From Octopus vulgaris (lineage: Eukaryota): a stretch of 64,000 nucleotides of DNA. Below are positions 10,540 to 55,754 of the stretch, piece by piece; the first letter of the stretch is position 1; every line of letters starts with the position of its first letter. The notes beneath the pieces were generated by a model. That model saw only the letters and a program-made list of their open reading frames with translations. It did no database searches and was not told the origin of the DNA. The stretch covers positions 65,162,001 to 65,226,000 of the forward strand of contig OX597826.1 in assembly GCA_951406725.2 (NCBI GenBank). The letters run 5' to 3'. The position numbers and the translations under genes are program-made.

Positions 10540-11200
10540 AAATGGCGTTAACCTCTCACACTGACAAATAATTTTAAATAATATTGGCAACAAAACAAAA
10601 TACCAGAGATTCACGGTGACCAAAAAGTTCGGCAGTAAATCCCGTTAGCTTCCGGTTTTTTTAACCATTTCTATATTTGACTTTATAATCTTCCGTTCCT
10701 TTTGAATTTAAATTAGAATAAATATAAGAATGTTTTATTTTTGTCAATATTTTTTTTTAAAGATTATGAAAATATATTTCTTTTCTCGTGAACTAATTTT
10801 TCAATCACATATGTAGACTTATTTACCGCAAAAACTGTATTAACTGTTCGCTAATTTGAGTGAACTCGATCTATATTTTTTAAGTGTTGATAAAATTTCA
10901 ACATAAACTGCATAAATTCTTAAAGCGCATTTTATCTTAAATAGAAAAAGGAAGTAGAAGCGAGTGTTATTCTATTAAAATATATATATATATATATATA
11001 AATGATTCCAAGAATTCAAGTGAACTTCTTTCCTTAAAATTTATTTCTTTACAATGAAAGGGGGGGGGTATTTCGAATCACGTGTGCAAACAATATAGAC
11101 CAATGAGAACGTCAGTCGGTGATTCTGCGTAAGCGCGAGCCGTCTACGTCATTGTCCTGCGTCTCTTAGCTGTTACTTCGACTTCTCTTGAAGATGTCTA
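10540..11200. promoter_or_regulatory. Probable bidirectional promoter of PCF11 and a divergent transcript
   Basis: CpG-retaining. E-box TCACGTG ~11078, CCAAT ~11100, two ACGTCA half-CRE sites, ETS-like CTTCCG at ~10650 and ~10690. YY1-type CGCCATNTT on - at 10539-10547 and on + at ~11684. Confidence 0.65.
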
Positions 11201-11426
11201 ACAGAATTATAGCATTGTGAAAGAGAACAGCAACACTAAATATATATATCGCTACTAGAAAGTAATTTTGCAGGCAGGAAGTTTTTTTTTTTTTTTATAT
11301 ATTTTTCCAATATCTATTTTTTATGGAGCAGTTCTGAAGTTGGTGAAATTTCTCCTTATATCAAAAAGCTTTAAACAGAAGATTTCACTAGACTATATAT
11401 ATATATATATATATATACATGAGAAA

Positions 11427-11585
11427 ATGGCTGATGCCGAAGAAGTGATAGATAGCTACCGTTCGTCTCTTGCTGACTTGACGATTAATAGCAAGCCACT
11501 AATCAGTATGTTGACCATGCTTGCCGAAGATCATATCCAGTATGCCCAACACATCGTTCAGCTGATCGAGCAGCATTTACAAAAG
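11427..11585 (+). CDS. PCF11: PCF11 coding exon 1 (start of CTD-interacting domain, CID)
   Basis: MADAEEVIDSYRSSLADLTINSKPLISMLTMLAED matches the Pcf11 CID N-terminus (Y.SSL.DLT.NSKP.I..LT.LAE). Ends AAG|GTTTCG, phase 0. Confidence 0.95.
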
Positions 11586-14489
11586 GTTTCGCTTTCTACA
11601 TTTTTTTTTTTAGGATTCTATCAATTCGCCATCGGATTTCAATCAATATTTTTGTTTCTTTTTTTTTATGTTTATTCCGCGACCGCCATCTTTGGTTTTG
11701 TGTGATTGAAATTTGAGTGCGAAATGAAAGGTTCTCTTATTATTATTATAATAATTCTACTTTATGTGTTTGTGTTTTTTTTTTATACTTTTTCTCCTTC
11801 TTCTTCCAGTAATTGTATTGTGTAAATTTTCTTATTCCTTCCTTCCCTTTTTTTTTAAATGCGAATCATATAAGTAAATAATTCAGTATAGTATAACTCC
11901 TTGATTGAATTCATAATATAGGTCAGTTAATGTTTGTTTCATGACCTCTAGTTGTAGCTATTTTTCTCCTTTTTCCGTATATAATATTTTATTTCAAACT
12001 GATTTATAATTTAGTGGAACGTTTAAGCTGTCATAAATCACGATCATTTTATTTATTTATCATAACTATAGGTTCAAATATTTCTTATAATGCTTAACGT
12101 TTTTAGTAAATAATTCAATGGACGACACACAGTCTTCTCTAGTTTGAGACGAGTTGGGTGTAAAACTACAGAATTAACAATCTGAAACTTGTTACACAAC
12201 CATAAGTAATGATTCAGAGTTAAATACGAAAGGCAATTTTTTGTAGAAACTGAAACAGGATTGTACACACACTTCGTTTAGTAAGCAATAATGGAACTAA
12301 TGTATTCTTAATGTTAAGCATACGGATGGATTTGAAAAAGCTTCAAACAAGATCGATTCTTTTTTTCTATTCATTTTAGCTTTCCAAAGAAAGCAACGTT
12401 TTTAGAAAATTTGCAAATCCTCGTGATTACAAAAGAATGTCTCAGTTCCATCGAGGTGTTTTGTATTGCTCTATGGTTATTTTATATAGATTAACGCATT
12501 CGACATAACAGATTGGTGTCCCACCCGACTCTGCTACCCTGTAACTGTTTTTTTTTTTAAATGCAATATTTTTTTAATTGTTAGTAATTTTTGACAAAAT
12601 TAGAAGCAAAAGTTGGGGTGGGAGCATTGGCACCCTCCTCCCTGTTACCGCTAATTTCTGTAGCTTTAGCATTTAATTTATTTATTTTAATGATTTATGT
12701 TTGAAACCCTTACATTCGCAAACCCATACCCTCGAAAAAGTATTTCCATACAATTTTATTTTGAATTTTTTCCCCCTAAAACATAATCTAAACTCTACGA
12801 AATTCCTTTTAAAATATGCTGTTTCAATTTGTAGTTATTCCTAATTTTCATCTTCCCTCTTATTGCGAATTTTAGTGTGTAAATCGTTATTAAATGCAAT
12901 TCATTTACTTGCTTTAGATAGGATAATTAATTATTCAGTTAATTTTCGAAGAGCTTTTAGTTATTTTGGAACGGCGTGTTTCTCGTGTACTTAAATCTCT
13001 GAATTTTGTGTGTGTGTATTTAATTTACTTCTATTGCCAATATTACTCCTATTATTTGTCTTTCCTATTATTTTCACATTCTTCTAAACTTTAGTGTATA
13101 TGTACTTCGTGGAAGGAATCGCGTATGTTTTAGTATTCTAAGTTATTTCTACTAATATCATGCAATATGGTGCCACTGGAGTCGAATATTTAAAACTGTG
13201 TATGTATATGTGTGTGTATATATATATAATAATGATTCGTGCTAGTTTGCAATATTTTTTTAACCACGCGGTGTCTGAATTTTTATCTTCGTTTGTATGA
13301 CTTCATGTGTAGTGTGTGTATGTATGTATATATATATATGCATCCACAAATATGGTATACATGATACACAGCCTGTGAGGTGGGAGTAAAAGTAAATGAA
13401 GGATGCTTTCTTTTTTTTTTTACACGTTATTACGCTGCATTTTATTTATATATAATTTAATCCGTCCATTTAGTGTTATTTCGTAATCATTTCATGTCTG
13501 CACAGGTCTTTACACTATTAGAGTATATGTAATATATGTCTACCGTTGTAGCAGTTATCACTGTCGAACGCGTATGAAAGCCAAGCTTGTACAACTTGTG
13601 ACATACAATGGTTGGCTTGTGCAGGGTGGACTGTAGCCCGAACACATTGATTCGTTTTCTAGTCTGTTAGATAAGTTTTTATTCTGAAACCCCCCAAAAA
13701 ATTACAGGAGATAAAACATCAGTAATTAATTTCAGAATGGGCATAGCATATAGTAGTCAAAAAAAAACAATTTTTCAATTAGCATAATTTTATTGGGTCA
13801 ATGTTTTCGTCGTGACCCTATTGGGTTTAATGTTGTATACTATGTGAAATTTAGTTTCATCCGTCTCCAGTTAGTATTTTCTTTGTATTTGTTTTCCCTC
13901 CGACAACTAAACCACCTCCATGTTCTTGAAACACTCCTTGTTTAGTAGTAACTGGGCGGGGTTTCCGTTAATAGACCTTTCACCCTCTCCTTCCCCGAAT
14001 TTTATTCTAATTAGCATGGTTGTTTCCCTTTTATCACTTTAGCACAATAGAAATAGCTCGTAGAAAACGTCAACTCTTGTGTGTATACACACACGATGTT
14101 GTAGTCTTTGAAGTAAAGGAGCGGCTCTAGAGTTAACTGCAATGCAAGATTTGTTTTGTTTTTACCATTATCTTATGGAAAGCTTAAAATTCGTCTTTAA
14201 AAATTGTACTTTTTGTAATGACATACTAACTCTCCCCTTGCTTGCCATTAGAGGTTCGTCATACAAAAATATTTAAAAGAAGAATTTTCCGATAATCTTT
14301 TTAATCTTTGTACATATAAAATGTCGAACATCATACTGGAGTAGACTAAAAGCGAACAAATAATCGTTATAATTGGCAGTATCAAATAGCAGGATGTCTT
14401 TTTTTTATATTTATTAGTTATTTCATATATTTTAAGTCTTTAGTTGTTTTTCTTAGTAGCTATAAAAATGCACTTTTACAAGAAAAGAA

Positions 14490-14763
14490 GGCATTCTTTC
14501 TATATAACTCGACAAAATCAAAACATTTCACTTCGGTTATTTTCGTGGGTTGTGGAGTATAGATATAACGAAATTATGCCAGCCATGTCTCATTTTGAAC
14601 TTGAAGAAAAAAAAGCCTTGCATATTTGTCCTTACCTGTTTCATATATGTATGTAAAATTCGCAAATTTCCAAGCAGAAAACAGAATCGAACTGTCATTT
14701 GCTTCCACGGAAATACCCGAAGTGAAATGTTTTGATTTTGTCGAGTTATATCGAAAGAATGCC
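14490..14763. mobile_element. MITE with 59-bp TIRs and 8-bp TSD in PCF11 intron 1
   Basis: 14490-14548 is the reverse complement of 14705-14763 (56/59 identical); GAAAAGAA directly repeated at 14482-14489 and 14764-14771. Confidence 0.88.
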
Positions 14764-17700
14764 GAAAAGAAAAATTTATCTGGATAGCCTTTTTTTTAAA
14801 GGTAAAGTTTTCTTTGATCTCCATCTTACGGTTATTATGTAAGTTTGAAAACCTATTTAAAAGTTGCTCTGTATATAAAAGTTAAATAAAAGATCTGGAA
14901 ATACCTTTAAAAAAATTCTTTGTATTTGTCACTGCTGGTTATTGATAATTTTGATTTTAGTTTGTATCACTTTGTTCGATATTTTATGTACAAAGATTGA
15001 AAGGTTACAGTTTTTCTAAAGAAGTTTGTCAAAATACATTGACTGACTCGTGATTCTCTCTTTAGAAAAAAATGACGGGCGAAAATATCGGGTATTCTCT
15101 GACACAAAATTGACATTGCTTTAACGAAATAAATTTTAATATGAATAGCTTGAACCAAGTTGTCATTTTAAAAAATAGATAACCTGGTGGTGAGTTTGAG
15201 AGAGAAGTTAAGAAAAATAAAAGCTTTAATTATGGTTGGCAAATCCAGCCATATGCATGCTTTTTCTTCATTTCACTTTCTTTTCTATGTTCATTTGTGG
15301 ATTTTATATATTAAAGCACATGCTAATTGTCATTCAGTCCCTTCGTATGATTAAAATTAAAATCGAACAAGAGGTAAGCTCAAGTTCTACTAGCCTACGA
15401 TCTTGATTTAGTTTCTGTTAAACTTATTTTACACAGTTCAAGATCAGTGATTGGGAGAATATATATCTTAATCATATTGATGTCTTAGATTGCTGCAAGA
15501 TATATTTGATTGTATTGCCTTGGCGTGTTATTTGCTTTGTCTGCTCCAGGTGGCTTTAGTTTTGTGTAACTTGTTTAGGTAATGTTCTGACATCTAAATT
15601 GGAAACAATTTACTAATATCTTACAGGAACAAGAAAATGTTGCTGTTTCATTTAGTGTTCTTTTTTTTCTGTTGCAACAAGAAGTGTTACGACCTGTTCG
15701 GGTAAATCCAGTTAAATGCTTCACTGGTATTTTCTATATGTCAGATAGTAATCTGGTAGTAGTGTTTCAAATTGTCATAGTTGCTGGGAAAACAAACAAA
15801 CAAAAAATACTTTGTCTCTAAAAACACTATTTCTATCTAAATTTCAGAAAACATCTTGGCAACTTCTCTGCTTTCTTTGCAGGAAATCTTTTGCCTGCTT
15901 GTCTTGTGTGGACTGACTTAATATTGAAAGGTTTCTGTGCCAATCCTCAAATTTATTCTGTACTTTTATGGCTTAAGAGAAATTTGAAAGTGAACTTAAT
16001 TGTCAATATTGGTTAAAAGAAATGTTTGGTAGTTAAAACTTTCAAAGTTAAGCATTTATACTTTTGTATCCATACGCTTATATATGGTTAAAATGGTGGG
16101 GGTGGATTGCATGGCAAAAAGTATACATTGATATTTATAGGTTAAATACCAAAGCCGCATGAGGTTATGCATATTGGCTAACAGTGTGGAATGATAGATA
16201 TATTTTAGTATCTTCATGTGTTCGGGTTCAATAATACAAGCCTATGTAACAATTGTTATGGACTTAACAGCTTCAGGTGAACATTTGATTCTAGATTAGA
16301 AACAAGTGTGGTGGGTGGTTTGGTTTTGAATCACCCATGCTTTGGAAATGTGGAAATGTTTTTCACAGCAATTTTCTGTTCACATATAGAATATTTTATT
16401 GTAGTTAAACTCTAGGGTTTTTTTAAAAAATCTTAGTCTTCTTTGCAAGTATATGTTGAATCATTAGTTTTTGTCTGCTTTTCCCTTATTACCATTGATT
16501 GGAGGAGTTTGAGACAGTGTTCTACAGCTGGATGCCCAGTTGCTATACTTTTCGCGTAGATCATGAAAACCATCTCTGCCAGCTGAATGATCTCAATTGT
16601 TTTAACATTTGTTTTTCCATGCTTTCATGAGGAAGAGATTTCTACAGTCAAGGTGCACTTCTCGTTTCTGAGCAGGGTAGTAATCCCTCCCAATCTACTA
16701 GACAACAAACAGTCCAGGCAAGGTTATACTGAGCCTTTTGTTTACAGAGATCACACATGTCAAGGAGCCCAGCAGACTTTCACATTAAATTGCAAGCAGA
16801 CATATTTATCAGCTGTGAGACTTGTTTCCAGTCAGTGAACATATGTGAAGACTGGGGAAATAATTAGCTATATTTCATCTTACATCTACCAGTTTCATTC
16901 AAAAGGCATTAGATCAGCCAACAGCAACCACAGTTGGGCAGGATCACTCACCACGTTCTGAAGCATGATGAAGAGCACTTGCCCAAGGTGCCATCCAGTG
17001 GAGTAAGCCAGAAAGCACTGCTTATAATATTTTGTGATGTATATATATGTGTTTGTCATTGATTGTTTGTTAGAATTAACTCTAGAAAATATATAACCTT
17101 TTGTGTCCATCACATGGTGATGGCTTTTGATGTTACTCAGCTGAACTCTCATTAACACTTAGCTGATGAGTATTAATACATTCACTATATTCCACTTTAC
17201 CTACTTATTAACACCAAACCAAAACTGAAAAATATTCAACTTTTGAATTAGGCTTTCGAGCTATTTAGATAACTGTTTTGTGACATTAACAGTTCCTGAA
17301 AATATCACTTCTAATAACTTGCTGCATGATATTGAATAATCAACACATAATTTTATTAGTATTTACTTTGGTCATTCTAAATGTTGCTGGTGTTTTGTGA
17401 CATGGACTCTGGCTTTTGAGATAGTTTTATTGGGGTAGAGATTTCCTTGCACTTTTGGGGGTCGTTCACTGTTGATTTCCAATTTTTCCAACACAAGTGC
17501 ACTCTCTTTTACAACTAGGTGTACTCGACTGTTTTGAGAGCAATATTTCTAGAACAAGCTGCTGGCACTTTGCTTGTCTTTTGCCCTAAACATTCAGGCC
17601 ATTTGTTGGGGTCCAGTTTTCATCTGCCTCCTATTCTCACTTAGCTATAGAATAGAGGCAACCTTTGTATCCATGGTTTATATAGTTATGTATAAACCCC

Positions 17701-20700
17701 TTGGTAGCCACTTTAAAATGTTCAAACAACGGTTTGTTTGGAATGTCAAGGATTAGAACCTTTTGTCCAATCAGAGACTGCCAGTAACTTAAAATCCACC
17801 CAGTTCTTGCTACACCTTGATAAGTGATAGAGAAGTGACTCATGATAAAAAGGTCATTTAGCCATAAAAATGGAATCTCTAAGTAAAATATGTACATTTC
17901 AAGCTATCTAGGACCAAGCACTGAATAAGAACTGACACCGAATAAAAGAGATTCTGTAATTCAGCTCCTTTGGTATCACTGGTGTGATAAAACAGTCCAC
18001 CCTGTATGATATGCAACAACAAAGCCAAAAGTATCATCAATCAATAACTTAAACCCTTTAGACTTGCACTACCTATGGACACTTAACTGCCCAGCTAATT
18101 GTTCATGTCATATTTATTGGGAGTTAGTATTACATATATCAAATAACACTTAGCCAATTCCCACGGCTTTGTGTTTGTAGTTGTGGGCCTAGGCTCAGTA
18201 CCATGCAGCCCACATTCTATATGTTCTTTATGCAGTCTACCTTGTGCATAGAGCTTGAGAAACTTTGGATGCCTTTAAGTCAACTAGGTGTGTGTCTATG
18301 TATAGGGATAAATTTTAAGAGTTACTATTTCCTTGATGATAAGTTGTAACTATTTCTAATAAACGTTTAAGGATCATTGGTATTGTTCATTTGAAGTGTG
18401 TGTGAATCCTATACAAGCTAAGGTAGGTAAGTACACACTTGAATGGTTCTAGTTTGTGTTATGGTTTGAGTATCAACCATTTAACAAAATTGAATTTTCC
18501 AGAACTAGATTAAATTGGCTGTGTTCAACAAATTTTATCCCTAGTAAAACTTTAATCATTTGGGTGTGTATTTCACTCTTGCTTTTTGTGGAGTTGGGAA
18601 GCAATATGCATTTTGTATGTGTGTATTGAAGGTGCTTGGTATTGATTCTCATGTTTTGATGAATGTTCAAGTAATTTTTGTGGGCATGTGAACTTTTGTG
18701 TGAGTATGGCATGATGGCGTATATGACAGTAATATTCTTTATTTTGTTGAAAATATAAATTAAGTGCATTTGTGATAAGGGGTTACACTTGTTTTTATCC
18801 AATAAGTTTGGATTTTGTATGTGCAAACACAGATACATATGTAAATTAATAAACTCAAAACTTATCTTAATTACACTTGTGTGTAATTTTCTTTTTTCTC
18901 TTTCTCTTTTTTTTTTTTTTTTTTTCCAGACAGGATGGTGACTCAGTAGTAGAGTGCTGGCAGTTGGGGTTATATTATTACTATTAGTATCACAAGAATG
19001 AATGCATTAATTAGTTTATGAAGTACGATAATTACATATCAGAGGTATTGATTAGTTATGCTGTAAATTTTACCCAATAGATTATTTATGAATGGCTGCC
19101 GCTCCATCCAGTAAATAATTGTTCATAATTTTAGTCTTTAGCTTGATGAAGAAATGGCTGAAGAAATTTTCTCCCTTGAAATTATTTTATCATATATAAC
19201 TCAAAATGTGATTTCCATTTACTACGGAATCATTTTGTTTAACCGTGGGTTACTGTGAAAATATCTCAAAATGTTAAATCAGTATCTCAGTAAAGGTAAA
19301 ATTGAGTATTAATACAAATTAAGAACTTTTCATTGTAGTAAAGGTACCCTCCTTGGACAACTCATGGGCTATCTGTTCTGTTAATAAAAAGTATGTCCAG
19401 ATAGATTGCTGATGTATTAATAACTTGTCTTTGAAACAGCAATAAACAAAAGTTTATAATTATTGGCCACTTGAACCTTAAATTTACTGTCTTGAATTAC
19501 AGTATCGGAACAAAAAACCCGTGAAGCATAATGTGTGTGTCTAAGCATGTAATGCAGATAAAAAAAAATAAATGATTAATGGGTTATCTTTGAGTAGAAA
19601 TAAAATGAATTTCATTTGAATTGGCTGCTTTTACACTCTCTTACCCTGAGAAGCTACATCATCTCAAGCTGGATTCAGCAAAAGTATCAAGAAATTTCAG
19701 CTGGCGTTTGTTGAACAGTTAGAAACTGTATTAGTTTATAAGAATAAATTATTGCCAGTCAATATGTCTTGCCTTCTGAGTACTTAACATGCAAGTTTGT
19801 TTTGTTTTTATCATAAATGAAGTTTCAATTTTGAACAGATGCAGGTTTAGTTGATCAAGTTGGCTGGCAGCATGTTTTTCAAAAATTTCTATTTTTAAAT
19901 AATTAGCTTACTTTTGATGCTAATTAATTATTATTTTAACATATTGTGATTATAAAATTTGAAGTTTATGTCGCCAACTTTCTCTAAACTTGTTTCTTTC
20001 ACTCTTGAGAGGTTCCCAAATCAATTAGATGGTTTACTGTGAAATGAATGTTCTTTATAAGAGTTATTGTAACAACAACTCTGAATAATTTTATGTTTGC
20101 TGCTAATGTTGGTAATTCATTTAATAATACAAAATCTGATATAAATTAACATGTATTTTAATTGCAAATCATAAGATTGTTTGTTTTGTGTTGTTACAAA
20201 ACTCTTTGCCATCTATTTTGGGAATCTTTATTGGGTTTATTTTGCCTTAAACTGGCTAAGTTGTATCAATGGAATCCATTCATTTTGCAAAATTACGAAG
20301 AAACCCTGTTGTGATTCACTGGACAAGAATCATTTTCCATCAGATAGTGGAGCTTGAAGAAGGAGCATCAAAAGAAAAGCTGTAGGAATGAAGATGCTAC
20401 ACACTTTCTTAAATGAAGATGGTTTTCTGATTATGCATTTACATGTGAAATATAGGGCGGTGTTATTTCTTTTACACCGTGCTGTAACAAACATTAGAAA
20501 TTGATAAACAGGTGGAAAACATCGCTCCTGCTGATCATTGATATTCTTGGTAATAAATACTTCAAAAATATTTTTGTATCCTGGATTTGTCATTCTTTGT
20601 TGGCCATTTACTAGGTCATTTCTGACCTAAGGAATGTATCTTATAGTAAGCATCACGATTCCTTCCAAAGCACCTGTTAAGTTCCATTCTTTTGGATGTC

Positions 20701-21008
20701 AGGTAAGAGTTTGGACATTTCTTCATACTCTTTATATTTCAATTATATTTTTAAAGTAAGCTGTGTAATTTGGCTCCTTGCCAATATTTAACAATTATTG
20801 ACATGTGAATTATTTCAGTGTATTTTCAAAGTCACGGCTTACTCAAAACACTGAACTTGGTCACGCTAGTTCATTTATATAAACTGAATAATCAAGCATT
20901 CGGTTTTTTCCCCTCTCCCTCAGAACTTGAGATTATGGTGATTTATTTTGTGTTCACATTTCCAAAATATCATATTTCATATTTTGAGTCTGTTTTTGTT
21001 CTTTTCAG

Positions 21009-21137
21009 GTGAAACCATCACAGAAATTGCCAGTTCTATATTTGATTGATTCGATAATAAAGAATCTGGATGATTGTGAATATCCTCAGCTTTTCAGCAA
21101 AAATATAGTTGCTATATTTTGTGATACTTTTGAAAAG
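21009..21137 (+). CDS. PCF11: PCF11 coding exon 2 (CID)
   Basis: TTTTCAG| VKPSQKLPVLYLIDSIIKN...FEK |GTTAGG; contains the CID hallmark KLP.LYL.DSI.KN. Not in the ORF track, read by hand. Confidence 0.95.
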
Positions 21138-52495: not shown

Positions 52496-53602
52496 TAGCA
52501 TTGAACTTTTCAGCCATAGACAACTAAAATTTTTACCCATGGTCATTGATGACAGCATGGAAGCCTTAGATGTGTATATATGTATGTGTATGTATACACA
52601 CACATTGAGGATGTGGGACATGTGGAGGGAAGAATGTTGAATTTCAGTAAATTAAGAGAAGTAAAGAGTGAATTGGCCATTGTAGGTTTATGAAACCAGT
52701 CCTATGTGAAATGCTTCAAATGATAATTGTCAAATAAAGGAAAAATCAGATCTTTCTTCAAACATGGTAGATAATGTTATAAAATCCTAATGTCTTAAAA
52801 TCAATCAATCAATCAAATTAATATAAAGTAAACTTTACAGAACAGTCACAAAGGATTCAAGTGCCAAAGTAAGATGTTTTATGACGCTAGTTGACGTCCC
52901 ATATCTGGGATAAAATAATAATTGAATTCTGGGTTTGAGTCAACTTTATTTTACAGAATTAACAATTATTAAGAAATAAAATTAGATCTTTTTCCTTTTC
53001 AATAAATAACTTTATTCATTTTTATTAGTTTTCTAAAAAATACATTTTAGAAAGAAAAAAAAAAAAAACCAACAAAAAAACAAAAAAAACAAAAAAACAA
53101 AACAAAACAAAGAATCTATTTGAAATAAATAAATTATAGAATTAAAAAAAAAACTATATAGATGAATACTGATATTTTATTTATTATACCCAGAGTCAAC
53201 ATGATTGATCTCATTTTATCACTGGAACAATTTTTATCAACTGCAAAGGGATGGAAAGGCGGAATCACTGAGAAGTTAAATATTGCAAATGTCTTTTATT
53301 TCTATGCAAGTTAAAACAAAGCATAACAAAAAGGGCATAACAAAATGATAAGCATTAAAAATGTAAATATGTAAGCATATATATATATATATATAAATCA
53401 ACAAGTTATGAAAATAAAATGAGATTTTTAAAGAAATGGTGATCACACCGCAAAATAAAACAAACAACCAATAGTAAAACAATTAACCCCCATCTATTAC
53501 CTAGAAGAATCCTTTTACAATTATATACATATATATGGTTGTTTATATGAATTAAATGCTTTGTAAATGTACCTGGTATCTATTAAAAAGGGTCTTAAAG
53601 AG

Positions 53603-54082
53603 TTAACAACTACAGCCATAGTCTTTCTTTCCGTCATCTTGTTGAATATCAGGGCTACAACCAATGTTAGTGATCTGTGAACTTTCTGAGGTGAATCGTG
53701 GGATATAGCTGGGCATCATTGGTTTAGAGTTCTTCAGTTTATGAGCCAGTGTCATAAAAATTGCTTCTACGTGGTTCGCTTTCTCATCATCTTTAGCTGA
53801 AGTTTCAAAAAGGGGCATGTTGTGAGAATCAGCAAATTTCTGGGCTGCATTGGTATTCACAGCGATTCTATCGATGATGTCACATTTGTTGCCGACCAAA
53901 ATTCTTGGAATGTCTTTATTTAAGTTATGGCGATCACATTCTTCAATCCAGTTTGGCATGTTCTCAAATGAGCTGATCTTTGTAACATCATACACAAAGA
54001 CAACAGCGTGCACATTCCTGTAATAATGTTGGACCATACTCTTCCGAAATCTTTCTTGCCCTGCTGTATCCCACAGTTGTAA
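53603..54082 (-). CDS. RAB33: Rab33 GTPase, last coding exon (partial gene)
   Basis: TTTTCAG| [32 protein letters not shown]...ILVGNKCD...FETSAK...[14 protein letters not shown]-terminal CSC prenylation motif. [14 protein letters not shown] is Rab33-specific. Confidence 0.95.
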
Positions 54083-55754
54083 CTGAAAATAGAAAATGAA
54101 AACAAAATAAAAAGTGAATAACTTCAAAGGATACAGTTCTTGATTTTCAGATCCTCTTAAAGAAACTAAAAATAAAGGTATGAAGAAAACTGAACAACCT
54201 TTCTGTGACTTGAAGGTACATCCTGACACACCTTCACTGCCATCTTCCTTCCCTTCTAACAGGGGTAACCATGTATCTCCCCTACCACAAGACACCTGTT
54301 CCTGTCCCCCTATTATAACTGTAACCTCTCATCACTTGGCATAAAACCACCTCCCTCAATACAACTTACCTATCTCAGTTGAAAGGTCTTGTCTTGCAGG
54401 TTACTTAGTAACGTCACTAGTGTTGGTATTGTGTAAAAAATTCCCAGTCTATAAGGTTGTTGGTGTAAGGACGAACATCCAGCCATAGAAACCATGCCAA
54501 AGTAGACATTGGAGTTTGATGCAATCCTATGGGCATTCAACTTCTCTTGAACTGGCCAACAAATGTTAGCAGAGAAAGCAGATGTTAACTGATGATGATG
54601 ATGATGCATATTGTTATTGCTAAAATGCATTAAGCATCCATTATCATTATTGTCTTGATGTACCCTTTTCCATACTTGTATGGGTCAGGTGGAATTTGAT
54701 GAGGAAGATTTTCCATGGCTAGATGCCCTTTATATTGTCAACCCTCACTTGTTTCCAAAAAAGATAATATTTCCCCCTTAGCTGGACATGTTTTCATGGA
54801 AGGCTGGGAATGAATGAGACTGCCTGATGGCAGTGACACTTGTTCATGACTACTTCTTGACACCAAAACAAGGAGACACACAAACACACATATGTCATTT
54901 CACTAAGCCCTTCACTCCTTAACAAGCATAGGCCATTGACGACTTTTCTCTACTAGTCTTCACTCAGGATGATCTTTTAGGATATCCTCTCTTCCTTGAG
55001 GGAAGGCCTTCCTCTCCTACATCTTGAATTGTCATCGATGCTTCTGTAACTTTATTTTTTCTAGGTAGAGATATTGGCCTTATGCAAGCACATATTTTTA
55101 CCTTTGGTAAGAGGTGGTCCATAATAGCCTAGCTTCTAACCTTTGACCTGTCCAGCATAGGAGGCTCTACCAGGAGCCTGTTTGCTATTCAGTCCATTTC
55201 AATTTGTCTGGAAGTTTAAAAATTACTGCAGCAGAGGAAGACAAGATAGTATGTCCAGGATTACTGAGATATTTAGTAATATTTCTTCATCAAGAACATC
55301 TGTTTCCTCACCTGTCTCTAAGAATAGTAATTTTTTTCTTATATAGATTCTTGTGCATCAAACCAACTCGCACATTCTCTTTATTTGATATCCTTGTTAC
55401 CTGAACCTACTTCTTTTATTAAGTTTGGATAAATTTACACTACTATCACATTAAACTATTATCGGACAACTTTTTGCTTACCAACTTTGGTACTTGATAA
55501 AATTTCTACCATTCTTTGATCTAATTCCTTCCATTAATTTTAGCTAATATTTCACTTGCATTTCCTGGCCCTAAGACCTTACTTTATATATATATATATA
55601 TTGATAAAAATGGTAAGATAACAAAAGAATGAAAAAGACCTCGATATTATGCAAATATATATATATATATATAGAAAGGTATAAACATACATATATATAA
55701 AAAAAGGTGTAAGAAAAGGAACGCAAGAAATGTAATTGTTATTAGTGCTTTCAG

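Follow-up and report, generated by a model that had tools for sequence, protein, structure and literature searches.

A candidate premature polyadenylation site within intron 1 of the Octopus vulgaris PCF11 gene

A poly(A) site through which PCF11 feeds back on its own gene has been shown for three vertebrates (human, mouse and zebrafish), and a single hint exists for Drosophila. In vertebrates, low PCF11 lowers the use of this intronic site, and PCF11 rises when the site is deleted (PMC6458999, PMC6428223). Intron 1 of mouse Pcf11 is large and has a very weak donor (PMC6428223), and the human PCF11 intronic transcript is retained in the nucleus and degraded (PMC9074902). In Drosophila spermatocytes, a 5' poly(A) site of PCF11 depends on PCF11 and cbc and was proposed to be autoregulatory (PMC11368245); early termination of PCF11 has been described in budding yeast (PMC7471841). 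Our literature search found no publication joining PCF11, mollusc and intron, and no invertebrate study of intron 1; the accessible parts of PMC9470587 and PMC6884704 hold nothing on invertebrates, and a study of octopus 3' ends (PMC9699675) does not name PCF11 in its accessible text or readable supplements. Here, we analysed a stretch of 64,000 nucleotides (nt) of Octopus vulgaris DNA (contig OX597826.1, positions 65,162,001 to 65,226,000 of the forward strand; hereafter the window), in which intron 1 of the PCF11 gene holds five clustered AATAAA hexamers downstream of a splice acceptor unused by coding exons.

The octopus candidate resembles the vertebrate PAS1, an intronic polyadenylation (IPA) site: both lie in intron 1 of PCF11, with multiple AATAAA, a weak donor and a large intron. 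It differs in that the intron measures 9.4 kb, against 3 kb in human, and in that five hexamers are packed into 360 nt, ~8 kb from the donor and preceded by a strong unused acceptor. Whereas use, conservation and feedback have been shown for vertebrate PAS1, the octopus candidate is known from sequence and contigs; its membership in the PAS1 kind is unproven, because its use and feedback are inferred here. With the Drosophila site it shares an early poly(A) site in an invertebrate PCF11, but that site is described as far 5' in the coding sequence of PCF11-RC and not as a hexamer cluster in intron 1 (PMC11368245). Intron 3 of the CstF-77 gene (CSTF3) likewise combines a 3' end factor, a large intron, a weak donor and intronic poly(A) feedback (PMC3708835), but is another intron of another gene. 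Finally, in human cells the acceptor, and not intron removal, couples to 3' end formation; this acceptor-dependent terminal-exon definition is like the octopus arrangement in that the acceptor precedes a poly(A) signal and can promote the 3' end, but it was demonstrated on the genuine terminal exon of human beta-globin and not on an intronic acceptor that goes unused (PMC3737548). The octopus candidate would extend a known mechanism to molluscs and is not a new one.

Judged by its sequence, the gene on the + strand is the PCF11 orthologue of Octopus vulgaris, in keeping with the first-pass annotation of this DNA, which had named a mollusc-like PCF11. Exon 1 is 92% identical to PCF11 of Acanthosepion pharaonis, and a tblastn search of the window with a 1971-amino-acid cephalopod PCF11 gave 12 matching segments, from 11427 to 32976. 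The 5' part of the gene is laid out as follows (positions are those of the window).

11427-11585, + strand: coding part of PCF11 exon 1, with ATG at 11427, 53 codons, phase 0; first part of the CID domain
11583-11591, + strand: intron 1 donor AAG/GTTTCG, very weak, with 0/4 consensus matches at +3 to +6
11586-11705, + strand: read-through frame, 39 more codons and then a stop, a 92-amino-acid product if translated
11586-21008, + strand: intron 1, 9423 nt, from the GT..AG joint 11585>21009 in runs X3, X5, X9 and X12
21009-21137, + strand: PCF11 exon 2, from RNA joints, contigs and protein matches

The bounds of intron 1 follow from the contig joint 11585>21009, which was found together with 21137>21578 and 21757>23217 in contigs of 4 public runs from 4 studies. 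Intron 1 is the longest in the gene model and splits the CID. GTTTCG is the sole donor with 0/4 at +3 to +6 among 13 PCF11 donors (introns 4-13 of the model come from protein matches, not RNA). By U1 duplex energy, it ties with the donor of intron 7, is better than that of intron 11, and belongs to the three weakest.

The cluster and the acceptor are a real sequence feature of this intron. With confidence that is evenly balanced, we propose that a share of PCF11 transcripts is cleaved and polyadenylated at the cluster by way of read-through of the very weak donor. The cluster comprises the following elements.

19383-19748, + strand: five AATAAA, at 19383, 19441, 19567, 19599 and 19743, each with one TGTA at most 60 nt upstream; single-copy DNA
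19557-19572, + strand: A-rich stretch with A9 at 19560, where oligo-dT could prime internally, a confounder for short reads
19749-19809, + strand: likely main cleavage zone, with cleavage expected at ~19760-19787, and a GU/U-rich downstream element at 19795-19809

All five positions are those that the first-pass annotation had listed, and its call for comparison with composition-matched sequence gave an unusual cluster within intron 1, at P ~0.01. In simulations with Markov models of orders 1-4 (2000 per order), at least 5 AATAAA within 360 nt occurred anywhere in intron 1 in 0.45-1.15% of cases (P 0.0045-0.0115). Among 107 hexamers of like count in intron 1, four cluster as tightly, AATAAA being one of them. 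Employing 40 other 10-kb stretches of the genome as controls, on both strands (80 strands), we found such clusters in 3/80, and in 0/80 when the hexamers had to lie at least 20 nt apart. Positions 18700-20200 contain no notable repeats; a repeat origin of the cluster was ruled out, its DNA being single-copy in a search that passes over very common words. The hexamers were not seen in hairpin loops (unpaired probability 0.17-0.71). AAUAAA-type signals accompany 71% of FLAM-seq sites in Octopus vulgaris (PMC9699675).

In the proposed mechanism, the very weak donor and an intron that runs ~8 kb before the cluster would delay splicing long enough for the 3' end machinery to cleave there, most probably after the last hexamer, at 19743. 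The product would be an unspliced RNA of exon 1 plus intron, ~8.4 kb long, and would, on the model of the human PCF11 intronic transcript, be nuclear and unproductive. PCF11 itself may set how often the site is used, and the PCF11 level would in this way feed back on PCF11 output. The acceptor at 18929 may aid the site by terminal-exon definition, and splicing to it would be minor or limited to some tissues.

Contigs of five public runs (X3, X5, X9, X12 and X18; 5 of 23 listed) were compared with the window; none of the runs is recorded as RNA, and all contain spliced PCF11. Assembled contigs show no ends, strand or level, may stem from pre-mRNA or DNA, and lose rare forms; the comparison moreover masks both the run of T and the acceptor, treating them as simple repeat, and omitted one joint, and a junction there is not directly readable. 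Loose ends at exon 1 and exon 3 appeared in 4/4 runs (X3, X5, X12 and X18), the exon 1 letters before exon 2 serving as control. Intron 1 is covered from the exon 1 border in X5 (11558-13194) and X9 (11558-12395). As a weak hint of a 3' end at the cluster, one contig of X12 ends at 19787, 39 nt past the last hexamer, and one of X18 at 19863, 115 nt past it, neither with a loose end. The X18 contig, compared with the window over 929 nt, shows 3 substitutions and one 2-nt insertion with the hexamers intact, a comparison that involves near-identical relatives only. Two further observations were not counted as evidence: the contig depths (57 and 43.5, then 2 and 10.7 in X12; 26.7, then 4.8 and 3.2 in X18) and the uncovered stretches past the cluster and in introns 2/3, both of which suit an RNA end at ~19790 but cannot rank parts of a gene. 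Nor does the proportion of words sampled in X18-X20 (0.43-0.47) decide whether the intron upstream of 18930 is covered.

Several observations weigh against cleavage at the cluster, and some of them suit another account, in which intron 1 is spliced slowly or detained, the contig ends reflect priming at the A9 or assembly breaks, and the hexamers are incidental. The contigs of X3 and X5 continue beyond the cluster, to 21036 and 20668, and the 3' end of the intron up to exon 2 is covered in X3, X5, X9 and X12. The X9 contig breaks at 19725, before the last hexamer; the stops of X12 and X18 differ by 76 nt, and the 39 nt between hexamer and stop in X12 is long. The A9 at 19560, one of three runs of at least eight A and one of four A-rich spots in intron 1, lies inside the cluster and could prime oligo-dT; a cluster of this kind is expected, under uniform placement, in 10.7% of 64-kb windows. 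Contigs that enter the intron from exon 1 hold just 28 exon letters, below the bridging bar of 31, and the intron cover may be pre-mRNA or DNA, X3 also covering sequence of introns 2 and 3. Neither a poly(A) tail nor a 3' end was seen at the locus in these contigs, which are unable to show ends. A kept intron is also seen in another animal, in two records, L033 and L034, identical in their overlap, of which one is spliced and the other keeps intron 1 alone, at 652 nt without any AATAAA. Slow splicing as the whole explanation nevertheless appears rather unlikely to us: the contigs of X12 and X18 go on for 219 and 295 nt after the A9 and stop past the last hexamer, the cluster sits in the very intron where vertebrates have their site, and well-spaced clusters are absent from the 80 control strands.

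The same contigs, lacking strand and start, could also belong to an independent intronic transcript, either sense from an internal promoter or antisense, that ends or starts at ~19790 and has nothing to do with PCF11 control; the repeat at ~14490-14770, described below, could supply its promoter. This we consider very improbable. The intron is covered from the exon 1 border, upstream of the repeat too, in X5 and X9; the poly(A) signals stand on the PCF11 strand, with no TTTATT in 18739-20226; and a search of 11000-21100 against Rfam gave no family at gathering level, with one weak sub-threshold match on a dinucleotide repeat.

The acceptor upstream of the cluster bears on how a truncated transcript would be built.

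18833-18929, + strand: AG-free zone and acceptor, with branch-point-like CTTAAT at 18866-18871, pyrimidine tract at 18887-18927 and AG at 18928-18929
18930-18941, + strand: ACA GGA TGG TGA, which would read TGW and then TGA (18939-18941) after a join to exon 1; a further AG stands at 18932-18933

The first-pass annotation had described an orphan acceptor with a polypyrimidine tract ending in CCAG at 18929, and both the sequence and tblastn bear this out: the pyrimidine run measures 41 nt, T19 included, and the 1971-amino-acid protein mapped no coding exon to the acceptor or cluster region. The acceptor lies 454 nt upstream of the first AATAAA. With 20/20 pyrimidines and a 94-nt AG-free zone, it is of a class met 5 times in 800 kb of control strand (0.06 per intron length), and 0/5 of those have an AG-free zone of at least 90 nt. 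The phase-0 join to the 53 codons of exon 1 does read ACA GGA TGG TGA, and entry at 18934, after the second AG, gives 17 codons before a stop, both as annotated. The immediate stop, which had been listed as a mark of the exon, is present but not special: of 446 AGs in intron 1, 24% reach a stop within 3 codons and 69% within 17. A looser rule picks four further acceptor-like sites in intron 1, including a strong one near the donor.

11785-11812, + strand: second strong unused acceptor, AG at 11809, 224 nt past the donor, TAA immediately after

Among the joints listed for X3, X5, X9 and X12, none leads to it.

The annotation had gone further and proposed a spliced alternative last exon, in which exon 1 is joined to 18930 or 18934, the transcript ends at the cluster and the CID is cut after 53 residues. 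As the main attenuator this is unlikely. It draws on the rarity of the acceptor's class and its place directly upstream of the cluster, and on arithmetic in X18, where 35 hidden letters precede 18935 in the contig, exactly the sum of 30 exon letters and 18930-18934; those letters fit an intronic start equally well. Against it, junctions from 11585 to 18930 or 18934 are not listed among the contigs of the five runs: no joint or loose end occurs at either position, in a masked repeat region and in contigs that lose rare forms, and 0/18 contigs of X3, X5, X12 and X18 is a junction piece. Coming from the upstream intron, single contigs pass 18930 without a break in X3 (14735-21036), X5 (14790-20668) and X9 (14736-19725). 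By the presumed logic of assembly graphs, the acceptor junction was not assembled in these three runs, because a junction would break the contigs there. Assemblers prune weak branches. In X12, the contig that joins exon 1 to exon 2 shows no branch over 191 letters; the downstream one begins 37 letters upstream, which by the same logic would fit an intronic neighbour. As noted above, chance accounts for the early stop. In keeping with a last exon and not a cassette exon, no joint out of 18930-21008 is listed for the five runs; contigs can attest what is present, not what is absent. A poly(A) switch in intron 1, as first proposed, fits the statistics, the weak donor, the contigs as a weak hint and an insect-like AATAAA block described below; its spliced construction finds no support as the principal route.

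Short PCF11 proteins of other animals also bear on the spliced form. Among 122 such proteins, 3 without the anchor motif were dropped; in 113 of the remaining 119, exon 1 is followed by V, the residue expected of GT read-through, and in 6 by another residue. The V itself is no evidence, because genomic contigs yield it trivially. Four named models lack the V, namely Arion vulgaris A0A0B7AYJ6, Elysia crispata KAK3784708.1, Elysia marginata GFS11291.1 and Pogonomyrmex barbatus XP_011644136.1; these same four (P0028, P0089, P0030 and P0092, from two Elysia, Arion and the ant) have a tail other than read-through, followed by a stop. Arion vulgaris also has a read-through form, A0A0B7B0Q1; we take both Arion records to derive from a transcriptome. 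Short spliced models in three gastropods and an ant favour a spliced last exon; those from Elysia and from the ant, however, are gene models.

A single DNA element, translated in two frames, underlies both Elysia tails (compatible run of 32 nt, 0/2000 shuffles), and the best + strand local match of this inferred element in octopus intron 1 lies at 18925, at the acceptor. Its score was reached at 206/797520 control positions, ~0.005 for a 21-nt target. It is a weak match. A stretch as long as the intron should hold 2.4 scores of this height, and on the minus strand four are higher and one is equal; both octopus AGs are left unmatched, and the likeness was noticed before testing and is post hoc. 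We regard the resemblance between the Elysia element and the acceptor as a lead only. When 16 introns were searched by tblastn with the tails from gastropods, the ant and cephalopods, all matches were at chance level. The exact 92-amino-acid octopus read-through protein is absent from the protein collection searched, and no short protein identical to octopus exon 1 was found there, a result that is uninformative, as records of close relatives may be missing. The read-through tails of the cephalopod-like P0001 and P0002 resemble shifted-frame translations of 11586-11700, which hints at conserved DNA after the donor.

Scanning metagenome contigs, we obtained 46 loci with PCF11 exon 1. The intron begins at the same codon in 43/46; of the other three, two are either spliced or lack an intron, and one is truncated. 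Vertebrate intron 1 presumably stands at the same codon position, although no vertebrate is among the 120 matches listed. Three intron 1 sequences, L024, L025 and L026, labelled insect-like by protein similarity, are invariant in 90% of columns; their longest invariant run, of 178 columns, and another of 93 surround the sole AATAAA that they share (0/5000 permutations). This block spans intron 1 positions 2623-2921 (L026:6661-6959), ~900 nt before exon 2; in the neighbouring intron 2, no invariant run exceeds 26 columns. By its sequence, the block is a candidate counterpart of vertebrate PAS1. Another locus, L035, reads in 1-1087 through a 5' leader, exon 1 and a read-through of 559 nt that contains 7 AATAAA, and ends in A14 15 nt past the last, the shape of a full-length intronic poly(A) transcript made by read-through; it is the one locus among 24 without exon 2 to have such an end. 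In the intron 1 of L040-L043, from another group of animals and otherwise 70% invariant, conserved blocks lie at 1-100, 645-686 and 831-881, the first holding an AATAAA 60 nt past the donor.

The comparison also yields results that speak against the generality of such a site. L035 may be genomic, and other contigs also finish in homopolymers. A significant AATAAA cluster was found in intron 1 of 0/23 other loci (best P 0.06), and 3 of the 14 complete introns among these 23 loci have no AATAAA at all. A donor weaker in intron 1 than in intron 2 is found in just 8/13 lineages, split as 7/8 outside the L002-type group and 1/5 inside it. DNA similarity among 33 intron sequences was found within close groups only, with none between the window and other phyla (E 1e-3).

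A broader proposal combines these data: an intron 1 attenuator that is bilaterian-wide, for which molluscs, cephalopods and gastropods alike, use a dedicated acceptor that defines a dead-end last exon. We hold this to be doubtful. In such a scheme, the acceptor would drive premature cleavage whether or not it is spliced, and PCF11 output would read both splicing and 3' end activity.

Other features of the window were recorded. A multi-copy repeat of ~280 nt with inverted ends, resembling a miniature inverted-repeat transposable element (MITE), lies in intron 1 at ~14490-14770; it has 39 other scored copies, 92-95% identical. At 16348 and 16538, the contigs of X3, X5, X9 and X12 carry 15 and ~47 extra letters, respectively, either an assembly error or a private deletion. 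A YY1-like motif, CGCCATCTT, lies near 11685. The only other dense AATAAA cluster of the window, at 52945-53295, is very AT-rich and lies 300-650 nt past the stop of 53603-54328 (- strand), on the same strand; we tentatively take 53603-54328 to be the terminal exon of a gene for a Rab-type GTPase.

How readily a long gene is truncated at intronic poly(A) sites depends on PCF11, and a cephalopod is an animal with long introns. A working octopus site, together with the insect-like AATAAA block, would place the origin of the switch in the bilaterian ancestor, or else mean its repeated invention in one intron.

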